A stretch of 64,000 bases of DNA from a virus (IMGVR_UViG_3300049472_000168:32001-96000); one strand, 5' to 3'; positions 16,523 to 56,819 are shown, numbered from the stretch's first letter. The notes: generated by a model from the sequence alone, not told the origin. Numbers and translations are program-made.

Positions 16523-18595
16523 ATGGCACCCAGAAAAAAAGTTTCCAATATCACGTTTGGTCTTTCTGAGACCGAACAGCAATCCGCAGATCTAGCAAAA
16601 TCGGAAGCCGACCGAAGGTCTGGTTCCGAGGGGCCGACTCTGGTCAAGTCTATCGTTAACATCCTGAATGGGTCCCCGGATTCAATCGAGAGACTGGCCT
16701 TTGAGTCTAATCCGACTCTGAATAATAGGTACTCCGGTATCTACAGAACCAAGACCAGACTTGTTCCAGATGATGTCTGTAAACGAATTGCAATCCAGGA
16801 TTCCTTGGTTTCCAATATCGTTAGAGCCCGTCAGAACCACGTCTCTATGTTCGGGAGACCTCGTCCAAATCGATTTTCGACTGGATACGTAATTGAGCCA
16901 GAAGTAGGTATTCTTGACGACCTCGACGAGGCAGGGAAAAAGGAACTCAACGAGCAAATCGAAAGGGCTGTCAGGCTTCTGAATTTCTGCGGCCATACTG
17001 AAGGTCTGCCCGAACCTGACAGAGTTACTTTTGCTGAATACCTCAGCTTAAGTGCGAGGTCGGGTGTAGTCGTAGGTAGGTTAGCTACAGAAATTATTTA
17101 TGTCCAGGACCCAGCGGGAAATAAGAAATTCCACCACTTCGCCGCGACTGATGCTGGTACTATTTATAAGGCAACTACCGATACTCAGTCACAGGAGTCA
17201 GTACGACAGGAGGCCTTCAATCTGCTTGTCGAGGTCACTGGCAAAAAGAACCTGAAACGGGAGAGATTTGAAAAGAATGAGTACGCCTGGATCCAAGTAA
17301 TAGAAGGCACCCCTCGTCAGGTCTTTACCTCTGATGAGATGAAGGTCTACAACTTCTATGCGGTTCCTGATGTCGAGCTAGATGGATATCCGGTTACTCC
17401 TATTGATACCGTGATCACTGCGATCACAACCCATATCAATATTGTAACCCATAACAAGTTGTACTTTCAGAGCGGCAGAGCTGCCAAAGGTATGGTTGTC
17501 ATCAAGTCGGATGATGCCACACCTACGATGATCCACAACGTCAAGCAGCAGTTCAATAACTCGATTAATAGCGTCAACAATTCCCATAGGCTCCCAGTAT
17601 TTGGTTGCGGTGTTGATGAATCGGTGACGTGGCAACCTATTGATGGTGGCGGCTCCAAAGATATGGAGTTTCAGTACCTCACCGACATGAATGCTAGAGA
17701 AATTCTCACAGCATTCATGATGTCTCCGGATGAATTGCCTGGCTGGAGCTATCTCAGCAGAGGTACTAATTCTCAATCGCTGTCTGAATCGAACAACGAG
17801 TACAAGCTGACAGCCGCACGAGATGTCGGGCTCAAGCCACTAATCCTTGGGTTTGAAGACTTCATCAATACCCACCTGTTGCCTCTGATTGACCCCGACC
17901 TAGCCAAGAAGGCAAAGGTTCGTCTGGCAGGCCTCGATGCTGACAATGCAGAAAAAGAAGCCGTCAGAATCCAGCAAGACATGAATATCTGGGAGACCTA
18001 TGATGGTATCCTGGAACGAGTCGAGAAGAAGCCAATAGGCATCGAGTTTGGTGGCTCCATTCCTCTGAACCAGGCGATTAAATCGTACTGGGATCAGTAT
18101 TTCACTGTTGGCGAAATCCTGGAAAAATGGTGTGGTCGTCAGGGCGCATCAAAAGACCCCCAATTGGCCTATCGCAGAGATCCGTTTTGGTTCCAGTGGG
18201 TCCAGCTCCAGCAACAGGCCCAGCAGCTCCAGCAACAGGCCCAGATGCAGCAACAGCAAGCTGCCCAGGGTGGTCAGCCAGGCGGTGGACAAGGTCAATC
18301 GGACCAACCCAAAGAACAGACCGAAAATCAAAAATCCGCAGCAGTAGACGAGGCCTCAGCCAAAGGATCTACTCAGGGCCAAGGAGCATCCGAAGCCACA
18401 GACTTGGCTAGGTCCATCGATGTCGCCATGGAATATCTGACGAAATCAGAAGGCCAGTTGCCTCCGGAGAAACGCAGAATCCTAGCAAGACAAAGAAAGA
18501 CTGTAGACCACTTCATGAGGGGCTTCGTCGAAGACAGTAAAGAGACCATCGACGAAATCCTTTCCATTGCGCGTCACCACGCACCGAAGAAATAA
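16523..18595 (+). CDS. portal protein
   Basis: position; GYPVTPID, NKLYFQSG, DMEFQ, AFMMSPDELP, DVGLKPLI motifs; Q-rich C-terminal tail. Confidence 0.88.
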   Translation: MAPRKKVSNITFGLSETEQQSADLAKSEADRRSGSEGPTLVKSIVNILNGSPDSIERLAFESNPTLNNRYSGIYRTKTRLVPDDVCKRIAIQDSLVSNIVRARQNHVSMFGRPRPNRFSTGYVIEPEVGILDDLDEAGKKELNEQIERAVRLLNFCGHTEGLPEPDRVTFAEYLSLSARSGVVVGRLATEIIYVQDPAGNKKFHHFAATDAGTIYKATTDTQSQESVRQEAFNLLVEVTGKKNLKRERFEKNEYAWIQVIEGTPRQVFTSDEMKVYNFYAVPDVELDGYPVTPIDTVITAITTHINIVTHNKLYFQSGRAAKGMVVIKSDDATPTMIHNVKQQFNNSINSVNNSHRLPVFGCGVDESVTWQPIDGGGSKDMEFQYLTDMNAREILTAFMMSPDELPGWSYLSRGTNSQSLSESNNEYKLTAARDVGLKPLILGFEDFINTHLLPLIDPDLAKKAKVRLAGLDADNAEKEAVRIQQDMNIWETYDGILERVEKKPIGIEFGGSIPLNQAIKSYWDQYFTVGEILEKWCGRQGASKDPQLAYRRDPFWFQWVQLQQQAQQLQQQAQMQQQQAAQGGQPGGGQGQSDQPKEQTENQKSAAVDEASAKGSTQGQGASEATDLARSIDVAMEYLTKSEGQLPPEKRRILARQRKTVDHFMRGFVEDSKETIDEILSIARHHAPKK

Positions 18596-19387
18596 ATGCC
18601 AGCCCATGCCTTAGGAGCCAGAGCTGTCTCCAAAATTCATGCCGCAGTTGAAGCCCTCTTCGACAGGGCCAAGGCCAGATTCCTAGGGAGAAGGCCTCCG
18701 AAGGAAATCAGGATAGGCATCAGGACTCCTCCAGTAGGTGTCAGAGATGACTTGACCCTAGGCGGAGTCTTTGACCACAGCGCCCAATCCGAAGGCTTCA
18801 AGCCATCGGAGAATCTCAGGGAATCCCTGAACCGAGTCGCTTCCGGATATCTCGATGCCCATAAAGAACTAGCCAAAGTCAAGGCAGTCAATGCCGTGCA
18901 TAACTGGTTACAGGAAGCCGCCGCGAAGAAGACCAAAACAGATGTCGATACCGTCCTAGGTGGCGAACTCACAGACCTGATGAGAGAGGTTACGGCTAAT
19001 GTCAAGAAAATCGCAGAAGCCGAAACGAATCGAGCCAAGAATTCCGGGACCATCGACGGCATCGCTAAGATCGCAGCGGTTACGGGGCAGGACGATCCGC
19101 TGGTCTACTTCGTAATCGTCAGAGACGGCCACGTCTGTGATGAATGCCTAAGACTCCATCAAGTAACTGGGACTATTTCGGGACCACCGAAGGTCTACAA
19201 ACTATCCGAAGTCGGCCACGGCTATCACAAAAAAGGCCAAGAAAATCCGAAGGTTACCGGACTTCATCCTCATTGTAGGTGTAGTCTTGTCTACATCGGC
19301 AAAGGCTTCGGATTTAATGACGAAGGAAAGCTGACCTATATCTCAAATGACCACGACGAGTGGTCGGCTCAGAGAGATCAAGGATAA
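18596..19387 (+). CDS. MuF/gp7-like head morphogenesis protein
   Basis: follows portal; CDEC...LHPHCRC. Confidence 0.7.
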   Translation: MPAHALGARAVSKIHAAVEALFDRAKARFLGRRPPKEIRIGIRTPPVGVRDDLTLGGVFDHSAQSEGFKPSENLRESLNRVASGYLDAHKELAKVKAVNAVHNWLQEAAAKKTKTDVDTVLGGELTDLMREVTANVKKIAEAETNRAKNSGTIDGIAKIAAVTGQDDPLVYFVIVRDGHVCDECLRLHQVTGTISGPPKVYKLSEVGHGYHKKGQENPKVTGLHPHCRCSLVYIGKGFGFNDEGKLTYISNDHDEWSAQRDQG

Positions 19388-19760: not shown

Positions 19761-20327
19761 ATGGGTATTATTTATGGGTTATTGGACCCCCGGACCAAGG
19801 AACTCCGATATGTAGGGAAGACAGAAGGAACTCTCAAAAAGAGACTCCGGGAACATCTTTCTAGGGCCCGACATGGGTCTAGGAGGGGTCACGTTTATGC
19901 GTGGCTTCGGGCTATCGATCTGAATCCACTTACAGAGATTTTAGAAGAAAATCTGAGCGGAGGAGATCTTGATGACGCCGAAAAATTTTGGATTTCATCC
20001 GCCCTTTCTTCTGGAGCCAAGCTGGTCAACCACACCTTTGGAGGAGAGGGTTGCAAGGGATATAAACACACTGAAGAGACAAGAAAAAAGATGTCCGGAA
20101 GCAAGGCAGGTAAGTTGAGAGGACCTAGATATGATATTCGTAAATTGACTGACAGTGAGGTCCAAAAAGTGGTCTCTTTGTATTCCGAAGGAAAAAGCAG
20201 CAGGGCAATAGCGGAGATTTTAGGCAATTTTAGCCAAACTGGAATCAGAAAAGTTCTCGCCAGAGAAGGAGTTCAGCTCCGTAAGGCAGTTGTCGGACGG
20301 TGGTTAACTGAGAAGGGGTCGAAATAA
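19761..20327 (+). CDS. GIY-YIG homing endonuclease with NUMOD3 and HTH
   Basis: IYGL...YVGKT...KRLREH, EKFWI, N-x-T-x-GGEG, HTEETRKKMS. Confidence 0.85.
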   Translation: MGIIYGLLDPRTKELRYVGKTEGTLKKRLREHLSRARHGSRRGHVYAWLRAIDLNPLTEILEENLSGGDLDDAEKFWISSALSSGAKLVNHTFGGEGCKGYKHTEETRKKMSGSKAGKLRGPRYDIRKLTDSEVQKVVSLYSEGKSSRAIAEILGNFSQTGIRKVLAREGVQLRKAVVGRWLTEKGSK

Positions 20328-23300
20328 TGGATATTAAAAGCATTAAATCCAGGACCGGAATGATAATCGACGGTGTTGCTGCGTCGCAGTGTATTGATAG
20401 TTCTGGAGAAATCCTAGATATCGAAGGAGTAGACTGCGCTCAAATGGAGGAGGCGGGCGGAATTCTCTTGAACTGGGAACACAAGGACGGGAGCGAAGGT
20501 GCCGATACCATTGTAGGTAAGGTGACTTATCTCAAGAAGATTCTGTCGGCTTCGGACTGTGAAAACGACCGTCAGCGGATGTACTGGGATAAGATAAAGC
20601 AAAATCCGTTTATTTACGTTACCTGTAGGCTGTTTGATGGTAGCGGTCATAAGAAGGCTGAAGCTATTGCAGCTATCATCAGAGACAATGTAGCCCACGA
20701 TGAGCCTCTGGCTTGTAGATTTTCCATTGAAGGTTCTACCACCTCTAAGGAGGGAAACACCTTAAAGGCCTCTATTTTCAAGAGACTCGCCATAACACTT
20801 GCTCCTTGTAATAAGACCGCAATATCTGGCCTTCTGAAGGACAATGCTATTGATACTCAAAAAAGTGAAGACCAGTTTGTCAACCCCGAATTCCGTCGTC
20901 TTGGCGGCTCAGTAGAACTGAATTACAATCCCGTTGTTGATTCTCAGACGGAGGCCTCGCTGCGTCTGATTTCGGCGGCAACTGCGATCAGGACTCTGAG
21001 GAAAGCAATATCCCCGATTAAAGATAAAGTCAAGTGTCCAAGTTGTGAGGATGGGGAGTCTTTCCACTATGTGTCTAGAATTGGGTTTGATGCCAAGAAA
21101 GGATACACACCTCCTAAGAAGCCTCTGTATATGTGTGATTCTTGTGGAGACATCCACGAAGATCCCGACATCAAAAAGGCTATCGAAGCCGGTAGTCTTG
21201 ACGGTGCCCCAAGCTCTAGGACCCAGGGAGCCGCGCTCCAACGTGAGGATGCGAGAAATACAGCTAAAGCCGTTCTCAGGGACTATGGTTGGGGACGGAA
21301 TTTTAAGAGGTCTGAATTCAGGGCGTTCTCCAAAGCCAAGCTACCAGAGATGTCTGATGACTTCCTGGACCACTTCACAGATATCGCAGAATCCTATGCG
21401 GTGAAGAAGGCTCTGCAAAAGGCTTCTTCTTTGATCAAAAAGGATACCTCTGAGGTAGAATCTGTCCAGGCTCCAGAGGCTGTCCCTGTAGAAGCCAAAC
21501 CGAAGTCTCCTAAACCTGCTGGTACCTTCAGAGGTAAAAAACTGAAGCCTAATGAAGGCCTGATATCTTCTAGCTTCGACGAAAAGAAGGGTGTCCTGAG
21601 AACCCCTATAGGGAATTTTAAGGCCTATCTCCCGAGTCATGACGGTCCCGAGGCTGCTGAGAACTACCAGAAGATCTTGAGCCATCCCGATATCGAGGAT
21701 GCCATGGATCACGCCATGACGAACTGGAGCAAGGTCCACAAGCTGACCAAGGCCGGAAAGCTGCCTCCGGAAGTCTTGATGCACGCCGTTCTTTTTGCTC
21801 AGCTTAGTCCAAACAAGCCGGTTCCAACTCAAGAGATCCAATACGCCAGACTCGTCGATGCCATGAACCAGTCTGGATTGGACCCGAGAAAGCCCGGATT
21901 CGAGGCAATCCTCCCCCACATCAAAGCCCTGGATTCCGCAACGGTTCCTCCTGTTACTGGAGGCCAAACCATTGCAACCCATCCGGCGTATAGACAGAGA
22001 AATGACTCAGATGTTACAGGTCGTAAGGCCGGAGATCTTCTGTCTACCAGTCCTTTGCTATCCGATGGCGTCAAAAATATGTCGCAATACTACAAGCTCC
22101 ATGACGGCCTACTAGATGTGATGTCGAGGCATCGTCACAACATGATGGGCGCCGTTTCCGAACTGATGGATGCCAAAACGGCCAAAACCAATTTTGACAA
22201 CGTCAATAGAGCAAGAGCCAAAGCAGGACTTCCTCCGAAGGAAGGCAACCCTGTATCGATTCCCGGAATCAAAGTCGAAACAGGCCTCTACACCTGGGGT
22301 ATGTTGGGCGGCGGAAATTCAGTAGTCCCAGACACACATTTTATCAGGAATGCCTTCGGTCTCGATATGCATAAGGATTCCGATACCTTATCTAGATTGA
22401 AAGATATCATGTGGTCCCCGACCAACATGCAGAGCATTATGGGTCCGTATAATCGCTGGTACCAGAAGAATCATCCCGCGATGAAATATACCCTGGAGCA
22501 TCCGAAGTGGGGCTCCATCTTCGAGAAACCCGAGGATGCCACGTTCCCGGCATTCTGGCGTCATTGGTTGACAATCAGGCCTCATGAAAAGTTCTTGGGG
22601 ATGCCAAATCTTGCCATGCAGGAAGGTACCAACCATGCTCCGTTCTGGGAGTCGATTGCACCTATGTTAAATAAGGCAGACATCCATGATTCCACAGTCC
22701 CCTACAGGACAGCCATGGTCCATCAGCAATATGTCAAGGATTTTGGTGAGATCCCTGCAATGTTTCTCTACTACCACCACTTGGTTCCTCATCTTCTCGA
22801 TGCCGCCAGACATCGGGAATCGACAGGGCGAGACCTCCAGTTCCTGGCTAAGTCTAGACAGATTGAAGCCGAATTAATTGAACTAAGAAAGACTGTAGAT
22901 TCAGTCATTTCAGGTTATGCCTTCGAGCCTCCAGAGGTCCACGAAGTCAATCTCAGTATCGGTGGACGCCGTCACCCTGCGGGTCGTTTCATGATTCATA
23001 ACGGCAGACTCCATCACCTGGAGGACTACCACGGCGTCCTGGATGCAATGATTCCTGAGGGCGATGTCGATACCACTACGATCAGCAGATTGCATGGTAT
23101 TAAATGGAGTCCTAACTTCAGGGTCCAGAGACACTACCACGAGGATCCAGCAGAACCCGAACAGATTCCAGTTGAGGTCAAACCGCAACCACTGCCTCAG
23201 AGGCCCCCTGTATTTGAATACCACAGACCAGGGATGGCTAGACCTCATACCGTTGAGTTCAGCAACGGCAAGGCAGCTTTGGATGGCAGAGAACTGTCCG

Positions 23301-24049
23301 ATGCCGAGACCAAACTGCTCCTCAGCAATGCTGATAAAGGTCTCGCTACTCTTCGATATAAGTCGCAGCCTACACCTCTCAATAAGACAGAAGAAGACCT
23401 AGATCCAGAAGGTGCTCTACAACATATCCGAAATGCTGTAGCTGCCGGTCATATCCATCCCGATGTCGAAAGGGCTCTGACCCGTCACATCTACGAAGAC
23501 AAAATGACTCCCGGATTAGGCAATAAATATGCTTATCAGCAATTCAGAGCCAAGAATAAGCCAGGAGTCTACATCAGTGCAGATAGCAACGACTTCAAGG
23601 CAATTAATGATACCTATGGTCACGATGCCGGAGACCAAGCCATCATGGGTGTCGGTAACGCTCTTAGATCTGCTGCCGAAAAGGTAGGTACCGTGAAACT
23701 CTTCAGGCCGGGAGGCGACGAATTCGTAATTCATGCCCCTAGTTATGAAGAGGCCTCAAAATTCATGAGACATGCCACGAAGCATCTGGACCAGGTTCCC
23801 GCTGTTGGTGGTGTCCATAAACACTCGATGAGTTTCGGTCTAGGCAACGACTTCGCCACTGCTGATAAGGCCCTGTATCATGCCAAGGAACAGAAGAAAG
23901 ATCCTACCACTGGTGGTAGAATGTTTCCCGTAGGAAAGACCCCACACATGGCCCATTCCTTGGTTCCTGATAACGCAGGAGCTATCAAGCTCCACGACGA
24001 GTCGCCTCCGGTTCAGACCCTACCTAAGCAGGCAGCGGCTCCGGTTTAG
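20327..24049 (+). CDS. prohead protease polyprotein: HK97-type protease + Zn ribbon + MCP N-arm copy + HhH-GPD-like domain + GGDEF domain
   Basis: LNWEH and RFSIEG protease motifs; VVPDTHFIR; DFKAINDTYGHDAGD...RPGGDEF...ADKALYHAK. Confidence 0.85.
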   Translation: MDIKSIKSRTGMIIDGVAASQCIDSSGEILDIEGVDCAQMEEAGGILLNWEHKDGSEGADTIVGKVTYLKKILSASDCENDRQRMYWDKIKQNPFIYVTCRLFDGSGHKKAEAIAAIIRDNVAHDEPLACRFSIEGSTTSKEGNTLKASIFKRLAITLAPCNKTAISGLLKDNAIDTQKSEDQFVNPEFRRLGGSVELNYNPVVDSQTEASLRLISAATAIRTLRKAISPIKDKVKCPSCEDGESFHYVSRIGFDAKKGYTPPKKPLYMCDSCGDIHEDPDIKKAIEAGSLDGAPSSRTQGAALQREDARNTAKAVLRDYGWGRNFKRSEFRAFSKAKLPEMSDDFLDHFTDIAESYAVKKALQKASSLIKKDTSEVESVQAPEAVPVEAKPKSPKPAGTFRGKKLKPNEGLISSSFDEKKGVLRTPIGNFKAYLPSHDGPEAAENYQKILSHPDIEDAMDHAMTNWSKVHKLTKAGKLPPEVLMHAVLFAQLSPNKPVPTQEIQYARLVDAMNQSGLDPRKPGFEAILPHIKALDSATVPPVTGGQTIATHPAYRQRNDSDVTGRKAGDLLSTSPLLSDGVKNMSQYYKLHDGLLDVMSRHRHNMMGAVSELMDAKTAKTNFDNVNRARAKAGLPPKEGNPVSIPGIKVETGLYTWGMLGGGNSVVPDTHFIRNAFGLDMHKDSDTLSRLKDIMWSPTNMQSIMGPYNRWYQKNHPAMKYTLEHPKWGSIFEKPEDATFPAFWRHWLTIRPHEKFLGMPNLAMQEGTNHAPFWESIAPMLNKADIHDSTVPYRTAMVHQQYVKDFGEIPAMFLYYHHLVPHLLDAARHRESTGRDLQFLAKSRQIEAELIELRKTVDSVISGYAFEPPEVHEVNLSIGGRRHPAGRFMIHNGRLHHLEDYHGVLDAMIPEGDVDTTTISRLHGIKWSPNFRVQRHYHEDPAEPEQIPVEVKPQPLPQRPPVFEYHRPGMARPHTVEFSNGKAALDGRELSDAETKLLLSNADKGLATLRYKSQPTPLNKTEEDLDPEGALQHIRNAVAAGHIHPDVERALTRHIYEDKMTPGLGNKYAYQQFRAKNKPGVYISADSNDFKAINDTYGHDAGDQAIMGVGNALRSAAEKVGTVKLFRPGGDEFVIHAPSYEEASKFMRHATKHLDQVPAVGGVHKHSMSFGLGNDFATADKALYHAKEQKKDPTTGGRMFPVGKTPHMAHSLVPDNAGAIKLHDESPPVQTLPKQAAAPV

Positions 24050-25240: not shown

Positions 25241-26125
25241 ATGAAGTTGAACAAAACTCAAATGGATCAGTTGCTGGCTCAGGTAACTGATGATATTGCC
25301 GAACTGCTGAAGTCGGAAGACCTCAGCAAGGCGGACCCCGGTGAGCAGGCTCCTGCGGAGGAAACTCCGGAAGGCAGCTCTGCTGAGCCTCAGGCTCCGG
25401 GTCCCGAGGCGTCGGCCTCGCCCGAAGACGACGGTCAGATTCCTCCTGGTTCTCCTGAAGGACCCGAGGCTTCTCCCGAAGGCCAAGATGCACCCCAAGA
25501 CCCGAGTACGGAACAACAGGTAACTCCTGAAGTTCTCCAGGCCGAATACGCCAAGCTCGATGTTGAGGAACTCAAGATGCACTTCCTGGCTGCTAAGGCA
25601 GCTTTGGCTCAGGCTCTTGGTGGTCAAGATCCTGAGCAAGGCCAAGCTCCTGCTCCTGGTCCCGAGGCATCGGCCCCGGCTCCCGGTCCGGAAGCTTCTG
25701 CTGGCCCCCCGCAAGGGGACCCAATGATGGGCAAGAAGGAGTTCGGTGGTGAAGGTAACGGAGGCAAAATCTCCAAAGCCGAATCCATCGAGCGAGATCT
25801 AAAGGAGCTGAAGAAATCACTTACTGACAAGGACCTCACCATCGCAACGATGGAGGAACAGCTCGGTAAATTGGTGGAAGGGTTCCAGAAGATCTTGACC
25901 CAGCCCATGCGTAAGGCGGTGACATCGGTACAATCGATGCAGTTCGTCGGTAAGCCTGGTTCTGAGACCAATCCTATCCAAGGATTGTCGAAGGCCGAAA
26001 TCATTCAGAAACTCAACGAGGCTACACGCTCGGACACTTTGACGAAGTCTGATAGGGATCTCATCAATAAGTTCGTGGTCTCGGGTAACGTGCCGGTAGA
26101 AGCCGTCGCGAAATTTTGCAAGTAA
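25241..26125 (+). CDS. scaffolding protein
   Basis: upstream of MCP; acidic P/E-rich with coiled coil; PGPEASA repeats; about seven xxK[SA] motifs. Confidence 0.75.
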   Translation: MKLNKTQMDQLLAQVTDDIAELLKSEDLSKADPGEQAPAEETPEGSSAEPQAPGPEASASPEDDGQIPPGSPEGPEASPEGQDAPQDPSTEQQVTPEVLQAEYAKLDVEELKMHFLAAKAALAQALGGQDPEQGQAPAPGPEASAPAPGPEASAGPPQGDPMMGKKEFGGEGNGGKISKAESIERDLKELKKSLTDKDLTIATMEEQLGKLVEGFQKILTQPMRKAVTSVQSMQFVGKPGSETNPIQGLSKAEIIQKLNEATRSDTLTKSDRDLINKFVVSGNVPVEAVAKFCK

Positions 26126-26146: not shown

Positions 26147-27544
26147 ATGTCAACACTAGATTCGGTTCAGGCTCTTATTAAAGCATTGGAGGCAGGCAGC
26201 TATGATGCCGCTCCCGGTACGCTGACTCAAGGCTCAGCTCTTCAGATCGAGGATCTCAGCTCGGTGATGAATAACGTCACCTTCGAGAATTCTCACATCA
26301 AGCTCCAAAAGCTGGTGTCTGTGGAGTCCTGCAAGTCTACGACTGCCCAATTCACTCGTCAGTTGTCGTACGGCATCACTGGTGGTTCCGCACAGCTTGA
26401 GGGCAACATCGGTCAGGAAGAGACTTCGGATTACGTCCGTTGTACTGTTCCGATGTCGTTCTACAGCCACGCTCGTAGAGTCACGGTGGCATCGACGATG
26501 GTCGCAACGGTGGACGGCAAGAAGTCGGATGAGCGGGCTGCTGCTGACGCTGCCCTGAAGCTGGCTGCTGATATCGAGAATGATATCTTCCGTGGCCTCG
26601 ACGACTACTCTAATGCTGGCGTCTTCGATGGCAATCCGATGATTGTTCCTTCGATGCCGAATATCCATGGCCTCGGCCTCCAGGTCCGTCAGTCGGACTT
26701 CCAGGTCAACGCACGGGATCGCATGTTCGCTGAATACGGCTCTGATGAGTCCGTGGTTCTCAGCGGCGGTGGTGTTGCTCTGACGCAGGACAAGATCGAG
26801 GACGGCGCTCTGCGCTCGGCCCTGAACTTTGGTAATGCCGAAAAGCTCATCGTGGATCCGGTCGTGTTGGCTGCGTACAACAAGATCACGTTCGGCAAAG
26901 AGCGTATCGTGTTGGCTGGTTCGGCACAGGATGCAACTGGTGGCACCCTGCGTAAGCAGTGGGTCAGCGGTGGCACCGTGACGCTTGAGGCCTCGCAGTT
27001 CTTGCGAGGCAAGTACAAGCCCGCCCCAGCTCGCCCCAATGGTCCTGGCGCCCCGACAATCGCTGCTGCCAACGCTGTTGGTGGTGCGCTTCCTGCTGGT
27101 GTATATACCTACTACGTCTCAGCCTTCAACGAGGTTGGTGAGTCGGTGGGTTCGCCCAGCGGTTCGGCAACGGCATCGCTGAACGACAAGATCACGCTGA
27201 CGATTACGCACAGCGGTTCTGGCACCACGGCTCGTGGCTTCAATGTCTATCGCTCGGCAGCGGGTGGTACGGCGGCATCGGCCAAGTTCATTGGTCGCTG
27301 CGCCATTACGCCGAACTCGGCTACCACGTTGTTCGTCGATCTTGGCAACAAGACCCCGGCATTCAGCACTGGCTACTTCGTCCAGCCCGATACGATGGAG
27401 TTCCGAGAACTCGCACCGTACAGCCGGATCAAGTTGGCAACGACTGACCTCAGCACCCCTGAAGGTCACTTCCGGTTCACCTGCTTGGCTGTGACCCAGC
27501 CCCGCAAGAACGTCTTGATCGATAACCTCAAAGGTACGATCTAA
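26147..27544 (+). CDS. major capsid protein with FN3/Ig-like insertion
   Basis: LIKA-LEAG...SALQIEDL N-arm; YTYYVSAFNEVGES..FNVYRS insertion; strong SD; followed by terminator. Confidence 0.9.
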   Translation: MSTLDSVQALIKALEAGSYDAAPGTLTQGSALQIEDLSSVMNNVTFENSHIKLQKLVSVESCKSTTAQFTRQLSYGITGGSAQLEGNIGQEETSDYVRCTVPMSFYSHARRVTVASTMVATVDGKKSDERAAADAALKLAADIENDIFRGLDDYSNAGVFDGNPMIVPSMPNIHGLGLQVRQSDFQVNARDRMFAEYGSDESVVLSGGGVALTQDKIEDGALRSALNFGNAEKLIVDPVVLAAYNKITFGKERIVLAGSAQDATGGTLRKQWVSGGTVTLEASQFLRGKYKPAPARPNGPGAPTIAAANAVGGALPAGVYTYYVSAFNEVGESVGSPSGSATASLNDKITLTITHSGSGTTARGFNVYRSAAGGTAASAKFIGRCAITPNSATTLFVDLGNKTPAFSTGYFVQPDTMEFRELAPYSRIKLATTDLSTPEGHFRFTCLAVTQPRKNVLIDNLKGTI

Positions 27545-31316: not shown

Positions 31317-34300
31317 ATGCGAGAAGTAGCTCTAATCCAGGTCCACGACTCCAAGGGTCGTTTGCTACTCGGCAAGAGGCGAGATGTAGGCAAGTGGACT
31401 TTGCCGGGTGGCCACATGGAGCCAGGAGAAACCCCGGAGCAAGGTGCTAGAAGGGAACTCAAAGAGGAAACTGGGCTAACCCCAGAGTCTTTGACCTTTC
31501 ATCGTACTGTTCAAGGTAACGACGTAATTCTGCACTGTTTCACTGCGCTATGCTTCGGAACTCCTAGTTCCCATCTAGATCCTGATCAAGAGGTATCGAA
31601 GTGGGAATGGATCGATATTGGTGATGGCATCCCGGTTAAGATCTGGGACAACCTCCACGGCCCCAAAGGTGACGAGAACGTCGTCAGACAGATGTTTGAG
31701 GCCGAAGATCTACATAAGGCTGAGCCCGGTGTCTGGTGGCACGGCACCCCTAGTGGAGAACTAGTGGGGTCCCACTACGGGCTACATGTAGGAACCCAAG
31801 AAGCAGCACGCCAAGCTCTAACTGCCAAAATAGGGCACCCTGTTGAAGGCAGTTGGGATGGCACCAGGACACATAAGGATACCCTTCTAGCCGGTCAAAA
31901 TACATTAAAAGCTAGAGGAATCTTCCCGACTGGATATAACTGTCGTGCTCCTGACTTCGATTTTTATTCACATCAGCATCCCGAAGGTGCTCCGACTTTT
32001 TCAGATGGTACCCCTATCCTAGATCACCACAAACCAGACATCTTCCCTGTTGAAATCACAGGACCCATGACAAACAGGCCACATACGCCTCATGAGGATT
32101 TCAGGGCAAATGGATACATGAAAGCAGCGGTAAAGAAGGGCAATCCCAAGAGGGGATACTACTATCGTAATGTCGGCGAAGACTCAGGCTCTATTTCTGC
32201 TGTGGTTCCTCCTGGTGGGGCCCATCTTAGAAGGCTAGATAGATCCCTGAGCAAGGCCGAATCTAAACCCAAAACACCCAAAATCCCGAAACCTCCGGAA
32301 CTTGTCGTTACCCACAATCTGAGCGAAGACAAACTAAAACATGCCTCTGAGATAGGTGGTTTGATTGCTCCGTCTATTGCGATCCACCACAAAGAATACG
32401 GCCACGACGGATTTGGAGAAATCTCCTTAATCGCTCCTCCCCATGTCGTAGACCCCAAGACAACCCCTGTTTTTGATGCCGATATCTATAGTCCACGACA
32501 TCCTAGAGTTTTTCATAGTCTGAAGCCTAAGGAAGCCAAGGAATTCCTGACCTGGATCCGCCCCCACCAAAAAGAAGTCTCTAAGCATTACGCCAGCTTC
32601 GATTCATTCGGCATCCACTTTAATTCGGACCAGATAAGCAAAGGCTTCGAGGATGGCCTGAGGCATAGCTTCCTTTCCGAGAAGGCTCCCGAAGTACTTA
32701 GCAAAATTAAGGAGTCCGCAAAACCAACAACCATCGGGACGTATGAATACGACACCGACTGGGGAGCAATTCGGTATGGTATTCGCCAGCACATCGAGGA
32801 TAGCGGACTCAAACCAGAATACGAGAAATATGCCAAAGAAAAAATAGCCCCAATACTGGGTGACAGATACTTCCTCAAGAACGGGAAGAAGAAGCCCTAT
32901 ACCACGGAAAATGTTCTCAAAGAACTAACTTCTACGATAAGAAACGGCGAAGGCGGCATGTCTGGAGGCATGGGTCAGATCAGAGCTGCAGGGGCCAAGA
33001 AGTTCCGTTCCTTTGATCAACTCAAAGGCCATCAGGACAAATTGGGCAGGTATGGGGACAGCAATTTTCCATCCGAGATAGTTTCTGGGGACGGTAGACA
33101 GGTTAAATCCGTCAAATCTGCTAATTCAAAGAACTTCGAGGATATCTCTGATGCCCTGAAAACCGCCAATGATTCTGGATTTTCGACATGGGGCAGTTTA
33201 GACCAAACCTCTGATGTCATCAAACATCTGTATAAAACAAAAAATATCGATTCCGCCCTCAGAGCTGGAGGATTCAATCCAGAAAAGGTCAGTGCCGAGA
33301 CCAAAGCTAAGATCAGACAGTTAGCAGCAGACCTCGTAATGAGCCCTACCGAATACTTCGAGGCGAAACCTCAACGAGTCGTCGGAATCAATGAATTCAA
33401 AGCCGCCGCTATCCCTCATAACGCATCTCCTGATGTTGTGGGGCTCCTCAATCGTCATGGTATCCGACACATCGAGAGATACCAAAAGGACGACCCCATA
33501 GACCGAAAAAGGGCTGTACAGAGGGCGGCTGAGGCCAATGACTTGATGCTATCAGAGGATGACTTCTGGGAAGCTCTAGAATTTGAAGAACTCAAGAAAT
33601 CAAGAGATTCCGAGGTCCAGTCACTACTTAGACATCCGGACCCCGTAGAACGAAGTCTTGCCCTCAAGTTAGATAGCTGTAGTTCTCATGATATCCTGGA
33701 GGCTTCGCTAGACCCTCATCCGGATGTCTGGGCAGAGGCTCTGAATCATCCCGAAGCCAAACATGCTAGATCTGTTTTGTTGGCCTCTGCCAGGGCCCAT
33801 GACGGTACCGACCTCTGGGACCGACATCTTCACATCCTGAGCAATCCTGACCTCCCCGCAGCTCACGTCCATAAGCTGTACGACACCGTTCTGGGCGATA
33901 ACTCCCTGGAACCAGATATCAGGGCATCTCGACTCTACCAGATTTCGAGGCATCCTAGCTTTGGTGATGTCGAGATTCCCGAAGACCTCCACAAAGCTGA
34001 ATATCTGCTACCAGACCTCCACGGCGATGTCAATGAGCCTACTAGACCAGAGCTGGAGCCGCTAAAGGCTGCGTTTGGTACAGCTAAAACTGACAGGACA
34101 CCCAGTAGTAAGCAAATTACAAAGACCGGTGTCGAATCTGGAAAGAAGGTCGTCAACATCACGACCCCAGATGGGCCCCAGAGGCTACTGCTGAAGCCCT
34201 ATAAGACACTTTATAACACGGGTTGGCAGGAATTAAATTCCCAAGCTCTATATCACGCCGCTGGGATCGGAGACCTCCATCAAAAATCCTTCGTTACCCA

Positions 34301-37846: not shown

Positions 37847-38047
37847 ATGCAAGTCACAATCACACACCTTCACAACTCTGCGGTCGAAAACTTCAGGGGT
37901 GAGCCAAACCAAATCGGCCAGCAACTGTTGACACGGTTTCCATGGCTCTCCTACGACCCCTATAACCCGAATCACAGCCCCAGTAATTTCCCCGATATCA
38001 TTGCGAGACTAGCGGCTCAGCAGAATATCCATGTCAAAGTGATGTAA
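37847..38047 (+). CDS. small protein homologous to the N-terminal module of 38047-39345
   Basis: both read I.[HN]LH......F.G...........RFPWL. Confidence 0.65.
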   Translation: MQVTITHLHNSAVENFRGEPNQIGQQLLTRFPWLSYDPYNPNHSPSNFPDIIARLAAQQNIHVKVM

Positions 38048-50265: not shown

Positions 50266-50274
50266 TGTGGGTCT

Positions 50275-51608: not shown

Positions 51609-51611
51609 TCA

Positions 51612-51959
51612 TTATTCTCCACGAAGATAGTCGTCATAGCTGTAGTCTTCTTCGAGGTACTGATGACGGTCTACAGCTTCCATCTGGGTCTTGAAATCTT
51701 CAAGATTGCTGGAGTCCAGGCTCCAGCGGGTTTCATCTAGGGCTGAGACAACCTCTCTCTTGAAATTTTCGGCGTAGAGGTCGGCAAAACTAGGCCCGAA
51801 CTCGGCGGTCAGGATAGACCTAGAGAGGTGTTCCGGCTCGGACCCGTTGTAGCCCCAATCAAAAGGCTCCCCGCGCTCCATAGGTGTCAAAGGCCTCCCA
51901 TTGATGGTTACGACTGCTTTGCCGTAGATCCTGCGACCGGTATAAGTATTCGATGACAT
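51612..51959 (-). CDS. hypothetical protein (FDWGYNGS motif), leaderless
   Basis: TTGACT(51989-94)-N17-TATTTA-6 nt-ATG. Confidence 0.65.
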   Translation of the reverse strand: MSSNTYTGRRIYGKAVVTINGRPLTPMERGEPFDWGYNGSEPEHLSRSILTAEFGPSFADLYAENFKREVVSALDETRWSLDSSNLEDFKTQMEAVDRHQYLEEDYSYDDYLRGE

Positions 51960-52015: not shown

Positions 52016-52651
52016 ATGGATCTAAGAAAAATCATTGTATATGCGCTGCTAGACCCCAGAGATAGCACGATGCGTTATATTGGTAAGACCAAGCAGAGAC
52101 TCAAGACAAGGATATGTCGGCACCAAAGAGACGCTCTGATGAAAATTGATGATAGGTGGGAGGATACAACCCATCGGGCCAATTGGCTTAGAACTATCTA
52201 TAAGGAAGATCTGACTCCTGAGGTGTTAGAGCTTGAGACAGTAGAAGAACAAGAAGGGAACGAATCAGAAAGATTTTGGATCTCTTATTTTAGAGGTATT
52301 GGATGTGACCTCACCAACTCTACAGAGGGAGGTGATGGCGGTATCATCAGTCGGGTTTCGCTTGTGTCGGATGAGGAAATATGTGCTCTCTATTCTTCAG
52401 GGGTGAAAAACAGTAAGGCTATCGCCAAGAATTTGCATACCTGCGCAAAAAGAGTAGTGAAGGTCCTTCGGAGGAACAATATATCCCTCTGTACGATTGG
52501 AAAGAGGATCAAAGATGATCTAGGGAATGAGTTCCGTTCCATAACTGAAGCGTCTGTTAAATAATATGGAGTTTCGATGGGTGCTGTAAGTAATGTATTG
52601 AGAGGTTATAATAAGACCTCTGCTGGGAGAAAGTTTAGCTATGTCGATTAA
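52016..52651 (+). pseudogene. GIY-YIG homing endonuclease with an in-frame TAA (52562) inside the C-terminal NUMOD1-like HTH
   Basis: VYAL..YIGKT..N.TEGGDG; FRSITEASVK*YGVSMGAVSNVLRGYNKTSAGRKFSY. Confidence 0.75.
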
Positions 52652-55600
52652 TATTTTTCTTTCTTTCGATGGCGATCACATTGGTAGGATGGTTGGTCGG
52701 GCCAGACTTTCCGACGAAGTCGAAGAGGTAAGAAGAATAGATCATGCGATCAAAATGGGTAATGAGGTGTTTAGATCGTGGGCTGTGACTAGCGGTGGCT
52801 CTATTACTGAAATTAGTGGCGATGAGGGTACCATCGAGATCCCCGCCGATGTCTTGGAAGACCTCCCCAGCATCTGCCATACCTATAAAACAGCCGTTGG
52901 AGCCACGGTAAGCGTTGGGTTAGGTAAGACCCTTTCTGAATCCGCAAAAAGTCTTATGGCGGCAAAGCTCAGGGGTGGTTCCAGGGCTGTATTCTATGGC
53001 CCCGATGTCGAAGAGACCATATCTGCCCGCAAGGAGCCGACAGAGGCCGAGAAGATCCAAGACGAATACCTCAACAAAGCTGAAGGTTCGGCTCAGGTCA
53101 GTCCCGATGCCATCGGAGGGTCCCCACACGAATCCTCGGAGCATACCGAAGCCGAAACCGCTAGAGCCGTTGCCGAAGGTGCCCCTCCCCAACAGGACTA
53201 TGAGACTAGTTTTCATAGTGCCGCGACGCATCAGGAAACCAAGGACAGGGCCAGGAATCTACAGAATTCAGAGGACATGTCCCAACTCAAGGCCAAGGTC
53301 GCAGCTTCCCTGGAGTCTTTGCGTCAGCAGTTGCCGGTTCTGAACCAGTTGAAATCGGCTTACCCCGACAGCTACAAGGCGGTTACTTCCTTGGTTCAGT
53401 CCGTCATCGGGCTGTCCAGAGGAATCCAGGCTGCTGATGAGCAGCTAGAAAACGTCCAGAAATCGGAGAGACCCCGATTTGCCGATATCAAGCCTAAAAA
53501 AAAAGAGGAAAACGAGTTCGACTATAGCCACCTGTTGCCGCCTCAGATCCAATCGCAGGGTTACAAGATTAGAGTAAAAATGAAGTCGTCTGTAACCGGT
53601 AATCCCGGAGATAGCTTTCTCTCCAGTACCGTAATTTCTCCTAGCGGTTCGCCCAAGGGCAGAGTATCGGGATATTTCTATAACGGAGCCGTAGAGCCTC
53701 ATTCAGGACTAGATCTTGACCTCCAAGGTAAAGGTATAGGAAAGGCCTTATACGAGGCCCTCTATGCCCATGCAAAAAACAAGCATGGTGTCAATACGGT
53801 AAGGGGTGAAGGTGCCAGCAAATCAGCCCATCATGTCCATTTGTCCTTGGCCAAGAAGTATGGATTCAAGATAAAATCACAGGACCCCGATGAAGATGTG
53901 GGTCCAGATGTTCCCTATCATTACCAGATCAAATCAGAACTCCAAAAAACAGAGGACATCGGTCTTCATGACGTAGGTCCAGAGGAATTTTCTGCTGCTA
54001 TAGCTCCTAGCTTCCGGGGCCATGGAGCCGAAAATCTGACACAGCATCCGGTGGAGCATTATAGAAAAGCGAAAAAGCTCGTAATCAGTTCAGATGGTCA
54101 TTCCGGATACGCCATATTCGACGACGGCGAATTCGGCAACCTATTCTCCAGGGTCAAAGGCAGAGGCGACGCCTTAGTTTCCCATGCCTCTGCAAACCAC
54201 CCAGGAGCCCATCTCAATGTCCTGGATAGCCCACACCTAGTCGGACTCTATTCTAGACATGGGGCAGTTGAAACCCACAGGGAACCGAACTGGACCCCAG
54301 GTGGGCCCGATGTCGTCCATATGAAGTTTGGTAACTTGCAGAAAGCGATTCCAAAGAAACACTGGGTAGAGAATACCGGAGGCTTCGGGAATCCTCTTCG
54401 GATTCCAGTATCCAGCAATCCAGACCGCAAGGCCTGGGACCAGGAGTTCCTTCGTGGTGTAGAAGATAGGTTTCCTGGTGTAAAGGAACTCAGGGATATC
54501 GATATCGACAAAATCGTCGGAGGAAATAGCAGAGGGGTAGCGAATAAAGACAGATTCCAGCTTTATTCCAAAATAGCGGGGTCCGATAGACTTCCTCCTG
54601 TGGTTGTCAGGCCTCTAGGAGATAAGTACGAACTCCTCGACGGCACCCACAGAACTGAAGCCGCTAAAGCAAAAAAGCTGAAGACGATTCCTGGTGTCGT
54701 GATGAAGGCCGATTTGGAGAAGGCCTTTGATTTAAAGCCTATAGGCTCCCCGGAACCCGGAGAGCATCGAGGCTACAAATTTAATGCCCACGACTATACC
54801 CATCTCCTTCCTCAAGGAATGGAAGGACATAAGCTCAAGGTAACATCCTACGAGCCTACCGATGAAGACCCCGGAATCATCAGGGCTTCACTACTAAATC
54901 ACAACGATGAAGAAGTAGGCCGCGTCTCTGGATTCAAATCCAGCAAAGGTGATAACGCCATAGAACCCCACAGTTTCGTTGATGAAAAATACAGAGGCAA
55001 AGGATTTGGGAAGCTATTATACAGCATTCTCTATTCTCATGCTCTCGGAGAGGGTTACAATAGGGTATCGGGAGACTACCACAGTGAGTCTGCTCATAGG
55101 GTTCATGATGCTTTAGCCAGACAGCATGGTTTTACGATTGAAGGTGCCGAAAAAAGGAAACTTCAGGTCTCGAAGCCCTATTCCCCGTATAGCTACGATC
55201 TGGGTAAGGAACAACTCTCAGATACCGAGGATGAAGTAGGTCACGTTCCTGTATTTAGTTCAACAGATCCCTTGGACGAGCTTCATCCAGTATTTTTTCA
55301 CCACAACGATTTAGTCAAAGGTGCGATGCAGAGGCTGTATCCTATAGATCCTAGAAAGATCAAGCAACAAGAGATCGGCACCAGATGGGATAAATTCAAC
55401 AACAAGGTACTCCCTGCCACTACGGAGGATTTCATTGGTCAACGAATGTCGGGACATGATAGTGCCCGCGAAGCACTAGCAGAACAAGGCAACTCGCCAG
55501 CTTTGGAGCCCGCCAGACAGAGGGCGCTTCACCGACTTCACGGACTGACCCAGGTCAGAAAAAACAGCAACGGGAAAAGAGAGTTTTTGTTGCATCGCGG

Positions 55601-56819
55601 CTACGGACCCGACGAAGATTCTATAGCAAATGGGGTCAAAAATAAATACAGCAATTCGACCTCTTCCTCTTCTTGGACTCCTCATCTAGAGGTAGCAAAT
55701 AAATTCTCGGACTGGAGTAAAGGTGGAGGCGGAGTGTCGGCATGGATACCAGAAGACTCCATTCGTTTCTCTATGCCTCAATTAGGCGGAATCGACAACA
55801 AAGACCAGGTTCCGAATCAGACAAAATATGAGCACGAAATAATCGTGGCTCCAGGGGAATATGACAAACATATCGTTGTAAGAAAAGCAGAAGATCTCGA
55901 AAAGGCCAGCTTCAAGGACATCAAGTCCCAGAACTCAGCGATTAAACCTGAGGCACCCGATGGTCCGAGGTCGCAGTTCTTCGATTATACCCATCTCCTG
56001 CCTCAAGCCTACCAGAAAACACACAGCCTGGAAGTCTTCCATTCCAAAACGGCCCCTTCCTACATGAAGAGGGGTCGTCTTATCGCGGTTCTTCGCAGCA
56101 AGTCGGATCCCGGATATCCAGCCCATGGAGTTGTTGTCCCCAGTCTCAAAGACCCCGAACTAGGCTACGTCGATGTCGCCGGAAGCTACTCCAATGGAGA
56201 CGGCAACGGAGTCGAAGGTCTAGTCCATGGCATCCTGGGCGAAGAGGTTCCTCGCCAAAAAACGATGACTCCCCACAGCTTCCTTAAGGAAAAACACCAC
56301 GGCAAAGGTGTAGGTAAGGCCATGTACGAAGCCCTCTATGCCAGAGCTATGGCTCAAGGCATCGATCAGATCCACGGCGGCGTCCATAGTCCTCAAGCCT
56401 CTGCCGTTCACCAGTCATTGGCCCAGAAGTACGGATTCAAGGTCGAAGGCGGGAAAAAAGTCCCGTTCGGTCATGATAGATATAAATATACTATCAAAGA
56501 CGAGATCAAAGACTTCCATCTCGAACCCCATCCCGACAACGACCCGGTCTTTGTCGTAAAGTCTGAACTCGCCCCAGAACAATCCGTACCGGAATCCAGT
56601 GACCTCGATAAGATCGCTTTGGATTCGGCTCATGCCAAGAAGAATCTCAAGCTACCTCCTGGAACTCTCCTCAACGGAAAGCTGAAGGTCCAGCATAACG
56701 ACGGGACCAAAGGATGGAAGGGCGTCAGGGCAGGCCTCATCGCTTCCCAAGAATCACACACACCTTTGCTAGGCAGCAATTCTCATCCGGTATCGTCTAG
56801 AGAGCCTAGCTCGAAATAA
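52641..56819 (+). CDS. large polyvalent protein: mCpol-like nucleotide cyclase + 4 GNAT + ParB/Srx-like + ADP-ribosyltransferase-like
   Basis: FDGDHIG..SGDEG..TVSVGLG..AAKLRG; QGKGIG, KGRG, RGKGFG, HGKGVG; LLDGTHR; LHRG..SSWT..EHE. Confidence 0.8.
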   Translation: MSINIFLSFDGDHIGRMVGRARLSDEVEEVRRIDHAIKMGNEVFRSWAVTSGGSITEISGDEGTIEIPADVLEDLPSICHTYKTAVGATVSVGLGKTLSESAKSLMAAKLRGGSRAVFYGPDVEETISARKEPTEAEKIQDEYLNKAEGSAQVSPDAIGGSPHESSEHTEAETARAVAEGAPPQQDYETSFHSAATHQETKDRARNLQNSEDMSQLKAKVAASLESLRQQLPVLNQLKSAYPDSYKAVTSLVQSVIGLSRGIQAADEQLENVQKSERPRFADIKPKKKEENEFDYSHLLPPQIQSQGYKIRVKMKSSVTGNPGDSFLSSTVISPSGSPKGRVSGYFYNGAVEPHSGLDLDLQGKGIGKALYEALYAHAKNKHGVNTVRGEGASKSAHHVHLSLAKKYGFKIKSQDPDEDVGPDVPYHYQIKSELQKTEDIGLHDVGPEEFSAAIAPSFRGHGAENLTQHPVEHYRKAKKLVISSDGHSGYAIFDDGEFGNLFSRVKGRGDALVSHASANHPGAHLNVLDSPHLVGLYSRHGAVETHREPNWTPGGPDVVHMKFGNLQKAIPKKHWVENTGGFGNPLRIPVSSNPDRKAWDQEFLRGVEDRFPGVKELRDIDIDKIVGGNSRGVANKDRFQLYSKIAGSDRLPPVVVRPLGDKYELLDGTHRTEAAKAKKLKTIPGVVMKADLEKAFDLKPIGSPEPGEHRGYKFNAHDYTHLLPQGMEGHKLKVTSYEPTDEDPGIIRASLLNHNDEEVGRVSGFKSSKGDNAIEPHSFVDEKYRGKGFGKLLYSILYSHALGEGYNRVSGDYHSESAHRVHDALARQHGFTIEGAEKRKLQVSKPYSPYSYDLGKEQLSDTEDEVGHVPVFSSTDPLDELHPVFFHHNDLVKGAMQRLYPIDPRKIKQQEIGTRWDKFNNKVLPATTEDFIGQRMSGHDSAREALAEQGNSPALEPARQRALHRLHGLTQVRKNSNGKREFLLHRGYGPDEDSIANGVKNKYSNSTSSSSWTPHLEVANKFSDWSKGGGGVSAWIPEDSIRFSMPQLGGIDNKDQVPNQTKYEHEIIVAPGEYDKHIVVRKAEDLEKASFKDIKSQNSAIKPEAPDGPRSQFFDYTHLLPQAYQKTHSLEVFHSKTAPSYMKRGRLIAVLRSKSDPGYPAHGVVVPSLKDPELGYVDVAGSYSNGDGNGVEGLVHGILGEEVPRQKTMTPHSFLKEKHHGKGVGKAMYEALYARAMAQGIDQIHGGVHSPQASAVHQSLAQKYGFKVEGGKKVPFGHDRYKYTIKDEIKDFHLEPHPDNDPVFVVKSELAPEQSVPESSDLDKIALDSAHAKKNLKLPPGTLLNGKLKVQHNDGTKGWKGVRAGLIASQESHTPLLGSNSHPVSSREPSSK

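Follow-up and report, generated by a model that had tools for sequence, protein, structure and literature searches.

The stretch of viral DNA analysed here (the window: 64,000 nucleotides, bases 32001-96000 within the 138,265-bp phage record IMGVR_UViG_3300049472_000168) encodes three giant late proteins, G1, G2 and G3, which appear to be composed of about 20 swappable modules, mostly enzymes, joined by a lysine motif of the capsid-maturation type. We consider it probable that sites of the head protease serve as the inter-module linkers of these capsid cargo polyproteins. The window is the late region of an Mx1-like myophage carrying a herellevirus (SPO1)-type head module. Its major capsid protein (MCP) shares 55.7% identity with that of Myxococcus phage Mx1 and about 25% with the capsid proteins of the SPO1 group; the IMG/VR contigs L005 and L006 are nearer relatives, with MCPs 66% identical. 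These three and the phage of the window are the four relatives compared below. Positions are those of the window, and features lie on the plus strand unless stated otherwise.

The protease in question, the first 179 residues of the 1240-residue G1, most likely cuts after the lysine in Φ-x-K|[A/S/T], where Φ is L, I, V or M, the bar marks the cut and Asp or Glu often comes next. Such a cut would trim the 12-residue leader of the capsid protein and dice the scaffold, and probably also trims the ends of the portal and releases the protease from the tail that follows it. This tail of G1 starts with a copy of the mature MCP N-terminus, which may be the element taking G1 into the prohead. The same site would separate the folded modules of G1, of G2, of G3 and of the kinase encoded after G2. 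Inside the prohead, the chains would be cut to single enzymes (cyclases, NUDIX, RNase, kinases, acetyltransferases and a ParB-like unit), which would remain in the capsid and then enter the host alongside the DNA. Since the junction is a short portable signal, modules could be inserted, lost, moved between giants or split off into genes of their own without breaking the scheme. We infer from sequence the cleavage, the specificity of the protease in this phage, the packaging of G2 and G3 and the injection and function of the products.

A preliminary description of this DNA had listed copies of the motif in the head proteins and giants. All of them exist at the places given, the coordinates marking either the first codon of the motif or the lysine codon, within 6 nt. 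In the head proteins these are LIK|A (K12) in the MCP, LLKS, LSKA, ISKA, LKKS, MRKA, LSKA and LTKS in the scaffold, and LAKS, LVKS and LTKS in the portal; further copies were found in the scaffold (LNKT) and the portal (IYKA and VIKS). Expected counts were derived from each protein's own composition, with open reading frames (ORFs) called over the whole 138-kb genome. The portal, scaffold and MCP formed the head set, and G1, G2 and G3 were grouped with the following 432-residue kinase-like protein (kin432). The basic form, [LIVM]-x-K-[SAT], occurs 14 times in the head set (4.05 expected) and 38 times in the giants (15.7 expected), against 10 (7.6 expected) in five large late proteins on the tail side and 136 (96.7 expected) in all other ORFs, that is, 2.4- to 3.5-fold over composition in head proteins and giants versus 1.3- to 1.4-fold elsewhere. 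For the extended form, [LIVM]-x-K-[SAT]-[DE], the counts are 8 (0.53 expected), 14 (2.12 expected), 1 (0.62 expected) and 19 (12.2 expected), or 15-fold in the head set and 6.6-fold in the giants versus 1.6-fold in the tail proteins and 1.55-fold in the rest. The excess is confined to head proteins and giants and absent from tail and early proteins. Given the background ratio, the Poisson probability of the extended counts in head proteins and giants is about 5e-10, an optimistic figure, as [DE] was added after the sites had been seen.

Because of that choice, the extended form was tested on other data. The protease domain is matched by 772 cluster representatives at 50% identity, of which the best 150 were examined, and in the cargo parts of these metagenomic G1 homologues the extended motif was observed 123 times with 30.3 expected (4.1-fold). 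The controls gave 0.47- to 0.88-fold (0.47-fold with Arg at P1, 0.56-fold for the reversed motif), and the protease domain itself contained a single copy in the 150 homologues versus 12.6 expected. In 19 polyvalent proteins resembling G2 or G3, 43 copies were observed and 9.9 expected, with controls at 0.3- to 0.7-fold. Arginine at P1 and the reversed motif are at or below expectation in the proteins of the phage itself as well; the signal is specific for Lys rather than Arg at P1, depends on orientation and calls for a small residue at P1'. In Mx1, the scaffold, the giant carrying the NUDIX domain and the portal rank highest in the genome for the extended motif.

The motif of the giants matches what is, by conservation, the maturation-type site of the capsid protein. 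The MCP (465 residues, 26147..27544; PHROG major head protein, E 3.8e-42) has its predicted maturation site at LIK12|ALEAG, and the MCPs of the four relatives all show a variable leader of 11-14 residues followed by a conserved L-x-K|A-[LM]-EAG. Comparable sites are found at the MCP N-terminus of SPO1 (ALNK|ALEAG), phi812 (VVK24|SFQTGYG) and Listeria phage LMTA-34, which is A511-like (ALK23|SFTTGYG), and tblastn alignments of the SPO1 MCP with other herelleviruses start at residues 19-23. Loessner and Scherer reportedly found in 1995 that Cps of Listeria phage A511 loses 23 residues. No paper giving the N-terminus of a mature capsid protein from a herellevirus turned up in our literature search, and the chain boundary of the phi812 MCP in the PDB was therefore taken as evidence for the site: in entries 9row, 9rox and 9roz it is a 439-residue chain, residues 25-463, starting at Ser25 directly after VVK24. 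The link between motif and protease is thus indirect but coherent.

The other two head proteins also carry the motif. The scaffold (294 residues, 25241..26125), recognized by its position between protease and MCP and by synteny with Mx1 and SPO1, has eight basic copies (1.05 expected) and five extended copies, three of the sites being conserved across relatives. Scaffolds are motif-dense in all the phages compared, those of SPO1 and phi812 also being dense in [LIV]xK|S. The portal (690 residues, 16523..18595; Pfam Phage_portal and PHROG portal matches) has LAK|SE at K26 and LVK|S at K42 in a variable N-terminal extension and a conserved C-terminal LTK|SE at K641. In Mx1, the portal's own N-terminal extension contains LQK|A, LAK|SE and LTK|S, and ISK|SE stands at the aligned C-terminal position.

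Residues 1-179 of G1 (20327..20863) form a head-maturation serine protease domain of the SPO1 type (His52, His108 and Ser133 in FSIEG), with predicted activity. Neither Pfam, even at E values up to 10, nor PHROGs matched the N-terminus of G1, and the assignment was therefore drawn from hhalign, invariant residues and fold. A three-sequence profile aligned with SPO1 gp3.2 over 141 columns (96% probability, E 4.6e-9), placing His52 and Ser133 onto the FNFDH and FSVEG motifs of SPO1, and H52, H108 and S133 are invariant in 46 sequences. An AlphaFold2 model of the N-terminus has a predicted local distance difference test score (pLDDT) >95 at residues 11-172, followed by a disordered stretch that holds K179. 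Nearly all top Foldseek matches in the PDB were herpesvirus proteases (assemblins), with probabilities of 0.9-1.0 and E values of only about 1e-3; the template modelling (TM) scores by query were 0.25-0.3, lowered by a 160-residue tail in the model, and T4 gp21 was also matched (TM 0.51 by target). The proposal of a protease domain with a FSIEG serine was supported: G1 starts with a genuine head protease of the SPO1 type, probably with the assemblin fold, in which the serine is invariant.

Directly after the domain, a basic residue followed by [ST]-E is kept in all four relatives (TQK179|SE here; LLR|SE, IEK|SE and IEK|TE in the others). About 100 residues beyond this release-type site, and itself behind Φ-x-K, lies a copy of the mature MCP N-terminus (KAIEAGSLDGAPSSRTQGAALQRED; G1 residues 284-308, 21176..21250), which starts at the lysine and is 68% identical to MCP residues 12-36 over 25 residues (E 1e-7). 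The copy is found in all four relatives and in 98 of the 151 family proteins. In these 98, P3 (two before the lysine) is always L, M, I, V or F, though unconstrained by the search pattern, and the residue after the lysine is Ala in 66, Thr in 31 and Gly in 1. A hidden Markov model (HMM) of the copy, searched against the genome, retrieved the N-terminus of the window's own MCP (E 4e-17) and otherwise only G1. The region may be a self-release site mimicking the capsid maturation site, and the peptide after it possibly docks the chain in the prohead. In the short head proteases of the herelleviruses SPO1, phi812 and Listeria phage LMTA-34, the phage's own mature MCP N-terminus is likewise copied after the catalytic domain, behind Φ-x-K|S; no description of such a copy in head proteases was found in the searchable papers.

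G1 (20327-24049) has the protease first and a GGDEF domain last, and the modules in between are bounded by the motif. A small insert with a double CxxC, zinc-ribbon-like (residues 227-284, 21005..21178), is bracketed by LRK226|A and IKK284|A; the four-way alignment shows it to be unique to this phage and absent from Mx1, L005 and L006, and it may be the smallest example of cassette insertion. A large conserved module (366-842, 21422..22852) is flanked by VKK|A/LQK|A and LAK|S and has an inner conserved LNK783|AD. It is missing from the 727-residue orthologue in L005, where the deletion ends at VKK|A/LQK|A and LAK|S/LRK|T. There were no Pfam or PDB sequence matches to this module; an Atlas feature search led to DUF7178 viral clusters (score 0.94), which is a lead only. 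The next module (856-1020, 22892..23386) follows LRK855|T and is a separate 150-residue gene in Mx1 (residues 882-1020 against the Mx1 ORF, BLASTP E 1.4e-8). LRK|[TAS] at the position of residue 855 is kept in all four relatives, as LKK|A in L006, with differing insertions right behind it in Mx1 and L006. The GGDEF nucleotide cyclase module (1021-1240, 23387..24049; Pfam E 5.5e-17) starts directly after LNK1020|TEED, exactly where Mx1 has a gene boundary, L005 has LSK|SD and L006 has LRK|AD. Across the family, 25 of 29 GGDEF modules have Φ-x-K-[SATGM] at -15 to +10 residues from their start, with varying flanks.

G2 is a polyvalent protein of 2167 residues (31317..37820) with Pfam matches to NUDIX, PBECR5 (E 3.6e-18) and, twice, PI3_PI4_kinase. 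It consists of a NUDIX domain (1-134), an unassigned part (135-313), a PBECR5 RNase region (314-761), a helical part (762-893), two kinase-like units (894-1167 and 1168-1527) and an unassigned tail of 640 residues, and its junctions are LHK134|AE, LSK313|AE, LKK761|S, LHK893|AE, LQK1167|A and LNK1527|SD. The L005 orthologue keeps the NUDIX domain, continues with LKK|SE and lacks residues 141-741, PBECR5 included, a block bracketed by motifs; in Mx1, the NUDIX domain stands mid-chain in a differently composed giant of 1479 residues. Two identical EDLHKAE peptides in G2 have five synonymous differences across their 21 nt. Since the two copies use different codons, the constraint acts on the peptide, and an origin of the motif repeats as recombination sites at the DNA level or as recent duplications was rejected on the same ground. 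The kinase-like protein downstream, kin432 (38047..39345; Pfam PI3_PI4_kinase E 1e-5, just below threshold), has ISK73|SE and AKK|SE before its kinase domain, and in its L005 orthologue the corresponding positions read LAK|TE and LAK|SE.

G3 (1392 residues, 52641-56819) has conserved ends around a large insertion. Its N-module (1-274, 52641..53462) comprises an mCpol-like cyclase (1-146, Pfam mCpol E 3.9e-8), which ends at LNK|AE, and a helical unit ending at VQK274|SE. The orthologues in Mx1 and the L005 record have only 468 and 696 residues, and the N-module ends at VQK|SE here and in Mx1 and at IEK|AE in the L005 record. The C-module (1308-1392, 56562..56819) was delimited by BLASTP of G3 1291-1392 against residues 369-468 of the 468-residue Mx1 protein and by a three-way alignment. 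Between the two ends lie 1030 extra residues that are absent from both orthologues; this cargo (275-1307, 53463..56561) matches Pfam GNAT families and, below the Pfam threshold, ParB_N. Its order is GNAT repeat 1, an unassigned unit, a ParB-like unit, GNAT repeat 2, an unassigned R-S-E-like unit and GNAT repeat 3, with junctions at LQK436|TE, LQK568|A, VMK689|AD/LEK694|A, LVK893|G, VRK1082|AE/LEK1088|A and VVK1307|SE. The Mx1 homologues of the GNAT and ParB-like cargo are located in the other giant of that phage. Ahead of GNAT modules, homologues have a conserved L-x-K|[AMS]-[AI]-x-D-I-x-P-G. In an AlphaFold2 model of residues 260-1392, built from a 20-sequence mosaic alignment (mean pLDDT 54.7), only the three GNAT modules are folded, and the junctions beside them, the only ones that can be judged, lie in low-pLDDT linkers; two matches that had not been listed before lie inside a GNAT helix.

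As an observation on the C-module of G3, about 60 residues are common to the 468-, 696- and 1392-residue orthologues whatever their cargo, with the pattern P-x-G-T...G-K-x-K-V-x-H...G-W-x-x-V-[RK]-A-G...S-x-[RK]-x-P-x-x-K. A role as a signal for packaging or ejection is conceivable.

Most of the best 150 of the 772 representatives have 400-1800 residues of cargo behind the protease domain, often ending in GGDEF. In the cargo regions of the 151 protease-led family proteins, BLAST homology breakpoints are 2.5 times denser within 12 residues of motif sites; the null was 1.0±0.16, none of 2000 permutations reached the observed value, and control motifs gave 0.6- to 1.55-fold. Only 4 of the 151 end in Φ-x-K, which is uninformative. 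The breakpoints in the family, and gene boundaries and the gain and loss of cassettes among the four relatives, all agree with the earlier suggestion that the motif lies at module boundaries where cargo swaps.

The gene neighbourhood places the giants among virion genes. The late order is that of Mx1 (terminase, portal, MuF-like protein, protease protein, scaffold, MCP, neck genes, giant NUDIX protein, kinase), and the synteny extends over the late block of Mx1 from terminase to tail sheath. The gene for G1 lies between portal and scaffold/MCP (portal, MuF-like, a homing endonuclease, G1, a 158-residue ORF, scaffold, MCP), in the same order as in Mx1 and SPO1. In Mx1, the orthologues of G1, G2 and G3 are encoded at 13002-16721, 24404-28843 and 33963-35369. 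The counterpart of the G2 gene lies in the head-neck block of Mx1, and G2 and G3 are syntenic with the contiguous head-neck-tail late block of that phage. G3 seems isolated because minus-strand blocks break up the late region, and is still syntenic with neck and tail genes.

The domain content was only partly as first described. GGDEF, mCpol, NUDIX, the GNAT repeats and three kinase-like units (two in G2, one in the next gene) were recovered, ParB_N was weak, and PBECR5 in G2 had been missed. The ART-like and glycosylase-like units had no Pfam or PDB sequence matches, and these labels are unconfirmed: Pfam searches of nine inter-motif segments returned nothing convincing, and a PDB sequence search of the two ART-like units and the middle module of G1 returned nothing. 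Owing to these units, the figure of about 15 injectable enzymes is an estimate and not a count. The rest of the earlier reading was supported in part: the motif is real, specific and enriched, lies at junctions and matches the MCP site, and the protease is genuine; cutting of the giants, the presence of G2 and G3 in virions and injection are predictions.

Several points weigh against processing of the giants by the head protease. The extended motif is missing from six of the 19 polyvalent homologues and from the Mx1 orthologue of G1, in which basic matches number 5 versus 3.1 expected. Three basic matches in G3 (K96, K368 and K1226, none of them listed before) sit inside folded domain cores, so that not every match to the motif is a junction. 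The copies are partly dependent, as many belong to the conserved termini of a single GNAT-type module that is repeated. Met often follows the lysine in homologues (Met-Ala-Ile-x-Asp-Ile), perhaps as the remnant of an old start codon and not through a preference of the protease, and some junction sites may be fusion scars. The HMM of the MCP-N-terminus copy found no capsid-targeting element in G2 or G3, and the genome paper of Mx1 contains no virion proteomics. A zincin-like HExxH protein just outside the window offers an alternative protease candidate. Finally, characterized head proteases remove propeptides and do not release several enzymes from one chain (PMC10052503).

An unlikely alternative, to our mind, is that the motif marks junctions without being cleaved, as a structural end-piece or linker (a helix cap or docking peptide), the giants staying intact like the virion RNA polymerase of phage N4. 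The motif is indeed embedded in longer conserved module ends (Y-x-Y-T-L-K-S-E-x-P-L-x-K before the cut and [AM]-[AI]-x-D-I-x-P-G after it), Met often follows the lysine, packaging without cutting is known for some polyvalent proteins (PMC5512222), and cleavage of the giants is itself predicted from sequence. A mere end-piece would, however, have to account for the same preferences at P3, P1 and P1' at the capsid leader, the scaffold, the portal ends and the release point of the protease, none of which is homologous to cargo, as well as for the unrelated folds that the motif flanks (NUDIX, GGDEF, kinase and mCpol) and for its depletion in the protease domain of the family. Modules also occur as separate genes in relatives, which implies that separate products are functional.

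It is less likely still that the chains are cut by something other than the head protease in the capsid, be it an HExxH protein, a host enzyme or G1 in the cytoplasm, with products that are intracellular late enzymes or are processed after injection. A candidate for such an enzyme is the 668-residue protein of locus L014, whose sequence includes a HELAH motif, a zinc ribbon and four copies of the extended motif, and zincin-like peptidases have been proposed as processing enzymes of polyvalent proteins by Iyer et al. (PMC5512222); the lack of a targeting signal in G2 and G3 fits this possibility too. Against it, the motif is the maturation-type site of capsid and scaffold in this head-module lineage, the cargo of G1 must enter proheads because it is carried on the protease itself, and the HExxH protein, without a Pfam peptidase match, carries the motif and so looks like a substrate.

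The L014 gene lies just after the putative sheath gene, at 65145-67151 on the scale of the window (plus strand). Its product combines the HELAH motif with a CxxC...CxxC zinc ribbon and a Lys/Pro-rich tail, and its extended lysine motifs include LQK|SE, LNK|SD and IEK|SD. The HExxH was recognized by motif only. The protein might serve as a metallopeptidase of the polyvalent type or be one more piece of cargo.

That the motif is a chance product of composition, a short pattern rich in K, A, S and L such as helical, charged late proteins often contain, is very improbable: the basic form is 1.4-fold over composition everywhere, which we take to be general sequence bias, and the helicase, already flagged as a caveat, has seven basic matches versus 2.1 expected but at most one extended motif, whereas in the enriched proteins the Arg-P1, reversed and other control patterns do not exceed expectation, the tail proteins show no excess, breakpoints and gene boundaries fall at the sites, and P3 is hydrophobic in 100% of 98 aligned sites; on the strength of the control motifs, this origin was rejected.

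The giants and their proposed processing can be compared with several known systems. By domain content and gene context they fit the published class of polyvalent proteins, and the protease fits the SPO1/assemblin/gp21 class. Several unrelated enzyme domains share a chain (protease and GGDEF in G1; NUDIX, PBECR5 and two kinase-like units in G2; mCpol, GNAT repeats and a weak ParB_N match in G3), as in the polyvalent proteins of Iyer, Burroughs, Anand, de Souza and Aravind (2017, PMC5512222), which are giant late chains of unrelated enzymes beside virion genes with predicted co-delivery with DNA. Of the domains of that class, GGDEF, NUDIX-type, PBECR RNase, GNAT and kinases also occur here, together with a weakly matched ParB-like unit (PMC5512222). 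Its signature domains are MuF, PBECR, ART, DdrB-like ParB and zincin-like peptidase, among which PBECR5 is clear in this phage. Unlike those proteins, the giants of this phage carry the head protease's own site at their junctions, one of them starts with the protease, and MuF is a separate gene. For auto-processing, Iyer et al. proposed zincin-like metallopeptidase domains, and prohead proteases appear only in their reference list (PMC5512222).

The system resembles T4 gp21 (which processes internal proteins and Alt), phiKZ gp175 and SPN3US gp245 in a head protease that is probably of the assemblin/gp21 fold and in a single motif for capsid, scaffold, portal and (here by prediction) packaged, injected proteins. 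The motif of the T4 head protease is L/I-x-E. That of the SPN3US protease is A-x-E, and all cleavages found in SPN3US remove N-terminal propeptides, which are degraded, except for the C-terminal self-cleavage of the protease (PMC10052503). In contrast to T4 and SPN3US, the predicted sites of this phage separate many folded modules within a single chain and have Lys at P1, and G2 and G3 showed no N-terminal targeting peptide. The Herelleviridae (SPO1 gp3.2, the gp3.3 scaffold and the gp6.1 MCP; phi812; Listeria A511-like phages) have homologous protease and MCP and share K|[A/S] at the MCP N-terminus, motif-dense scaffolds and a protease domain followed by a copy of the MCP N-terminus. Their proteases, however, have about 256 residues and no cargo, whereas here cargo follows the protease domain. 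By fold, there is also a probable likeness to the protease-scaffold fusions of the herpesvirus pUL26 type, with an assemblin-fold protease at the N-terminus of a longer chain. Herpesvirus pUL26 is a capsid-internal chain that cleaves itself at defined release and maturation sites, and its tail is the scaffold; here, by contrast, enzyme cargo makes up the tail, and the scaffold has a gene of its own. The differences from known systems are thus Lys at P1, sites between folded modules and not after a propeptide, and a protease fused to 400-1800 residues of cargo. A literature search found no paper describing a protease-led cargo arrangement, and dicing one chain into several enzymes would be a new behaviour.

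If it is true, linkage through head-protease sites would explain how polyvalent phage proteins become working single enzymes, and also the fast turnover of domains between relatives, since the junction would be a brief signal recognized by a protease that all such phages need in any case. Head-protease processing would then cover the dicing of polyproteins and not just the removal of propeptides, and a sequence rule would be available by which effectors carried in the capsid and injected could be predicted for uncultured phages. The cargo predicted here (cyclic-nucleotide synthases, NUDIX, kinases and acetyltransferases) would likely act on signalling or defence of the host within seconds of the start of infection. 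Standard proteomics of virions would have overlooked the cuts, because cuts after Lys look like tryptic cuts. Myxococcus phage Mx1 is culturable and has the same gene layout, so that the idea is directly testable there. Tentatively, we extend the proposal to a portable linker code, under which any enzyme domain flanked by Φ-x-K|[A/S/T] might be spliced into a head polyprotein, freed in the prohead and injected, and which might be common to hundreds of uncultured phage lineages.

Among the remaining genes, a stand-alone MuF-like minor head protein (263 residues, 18596..19387) was recognized by a weak Pfam Phage_Mu_F match (E 2e-4, below threshold) and a PHROG minor head/portal match. It is 43% identical to its Mx1 orthologue and contains no match to [LIVM]xK[SAT]. 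Directly upstream of G1 lies a GIY-YIG/NUMOD3 homing-endonuclease-like gene (19761-20327, plus strand), which shares an ATGA start/stop overlap with G1 at 20327; Mx1 has small minus-strand genes there. The late structural block, contiguous in Mx1 (30724-36247), is split here into plus-strand islands by gene blocks that are mostly on the minus strand (39323-45174, 47822-51959 and 56879-58987). Outside the window, among minus-strand genes, a stand-alone protease paralogue of 154 residues (locus L015; genome 11938-12402, minus strand; -20062 to -19598 on the scale of the window) is 55% identical to the G1 domain, with precisely two catalytic residues replaced, His52 by Tyr and Ser133 by Gly. As a possible pseudoprotease, it might for example regulate head maturation or act as a decoy in it.

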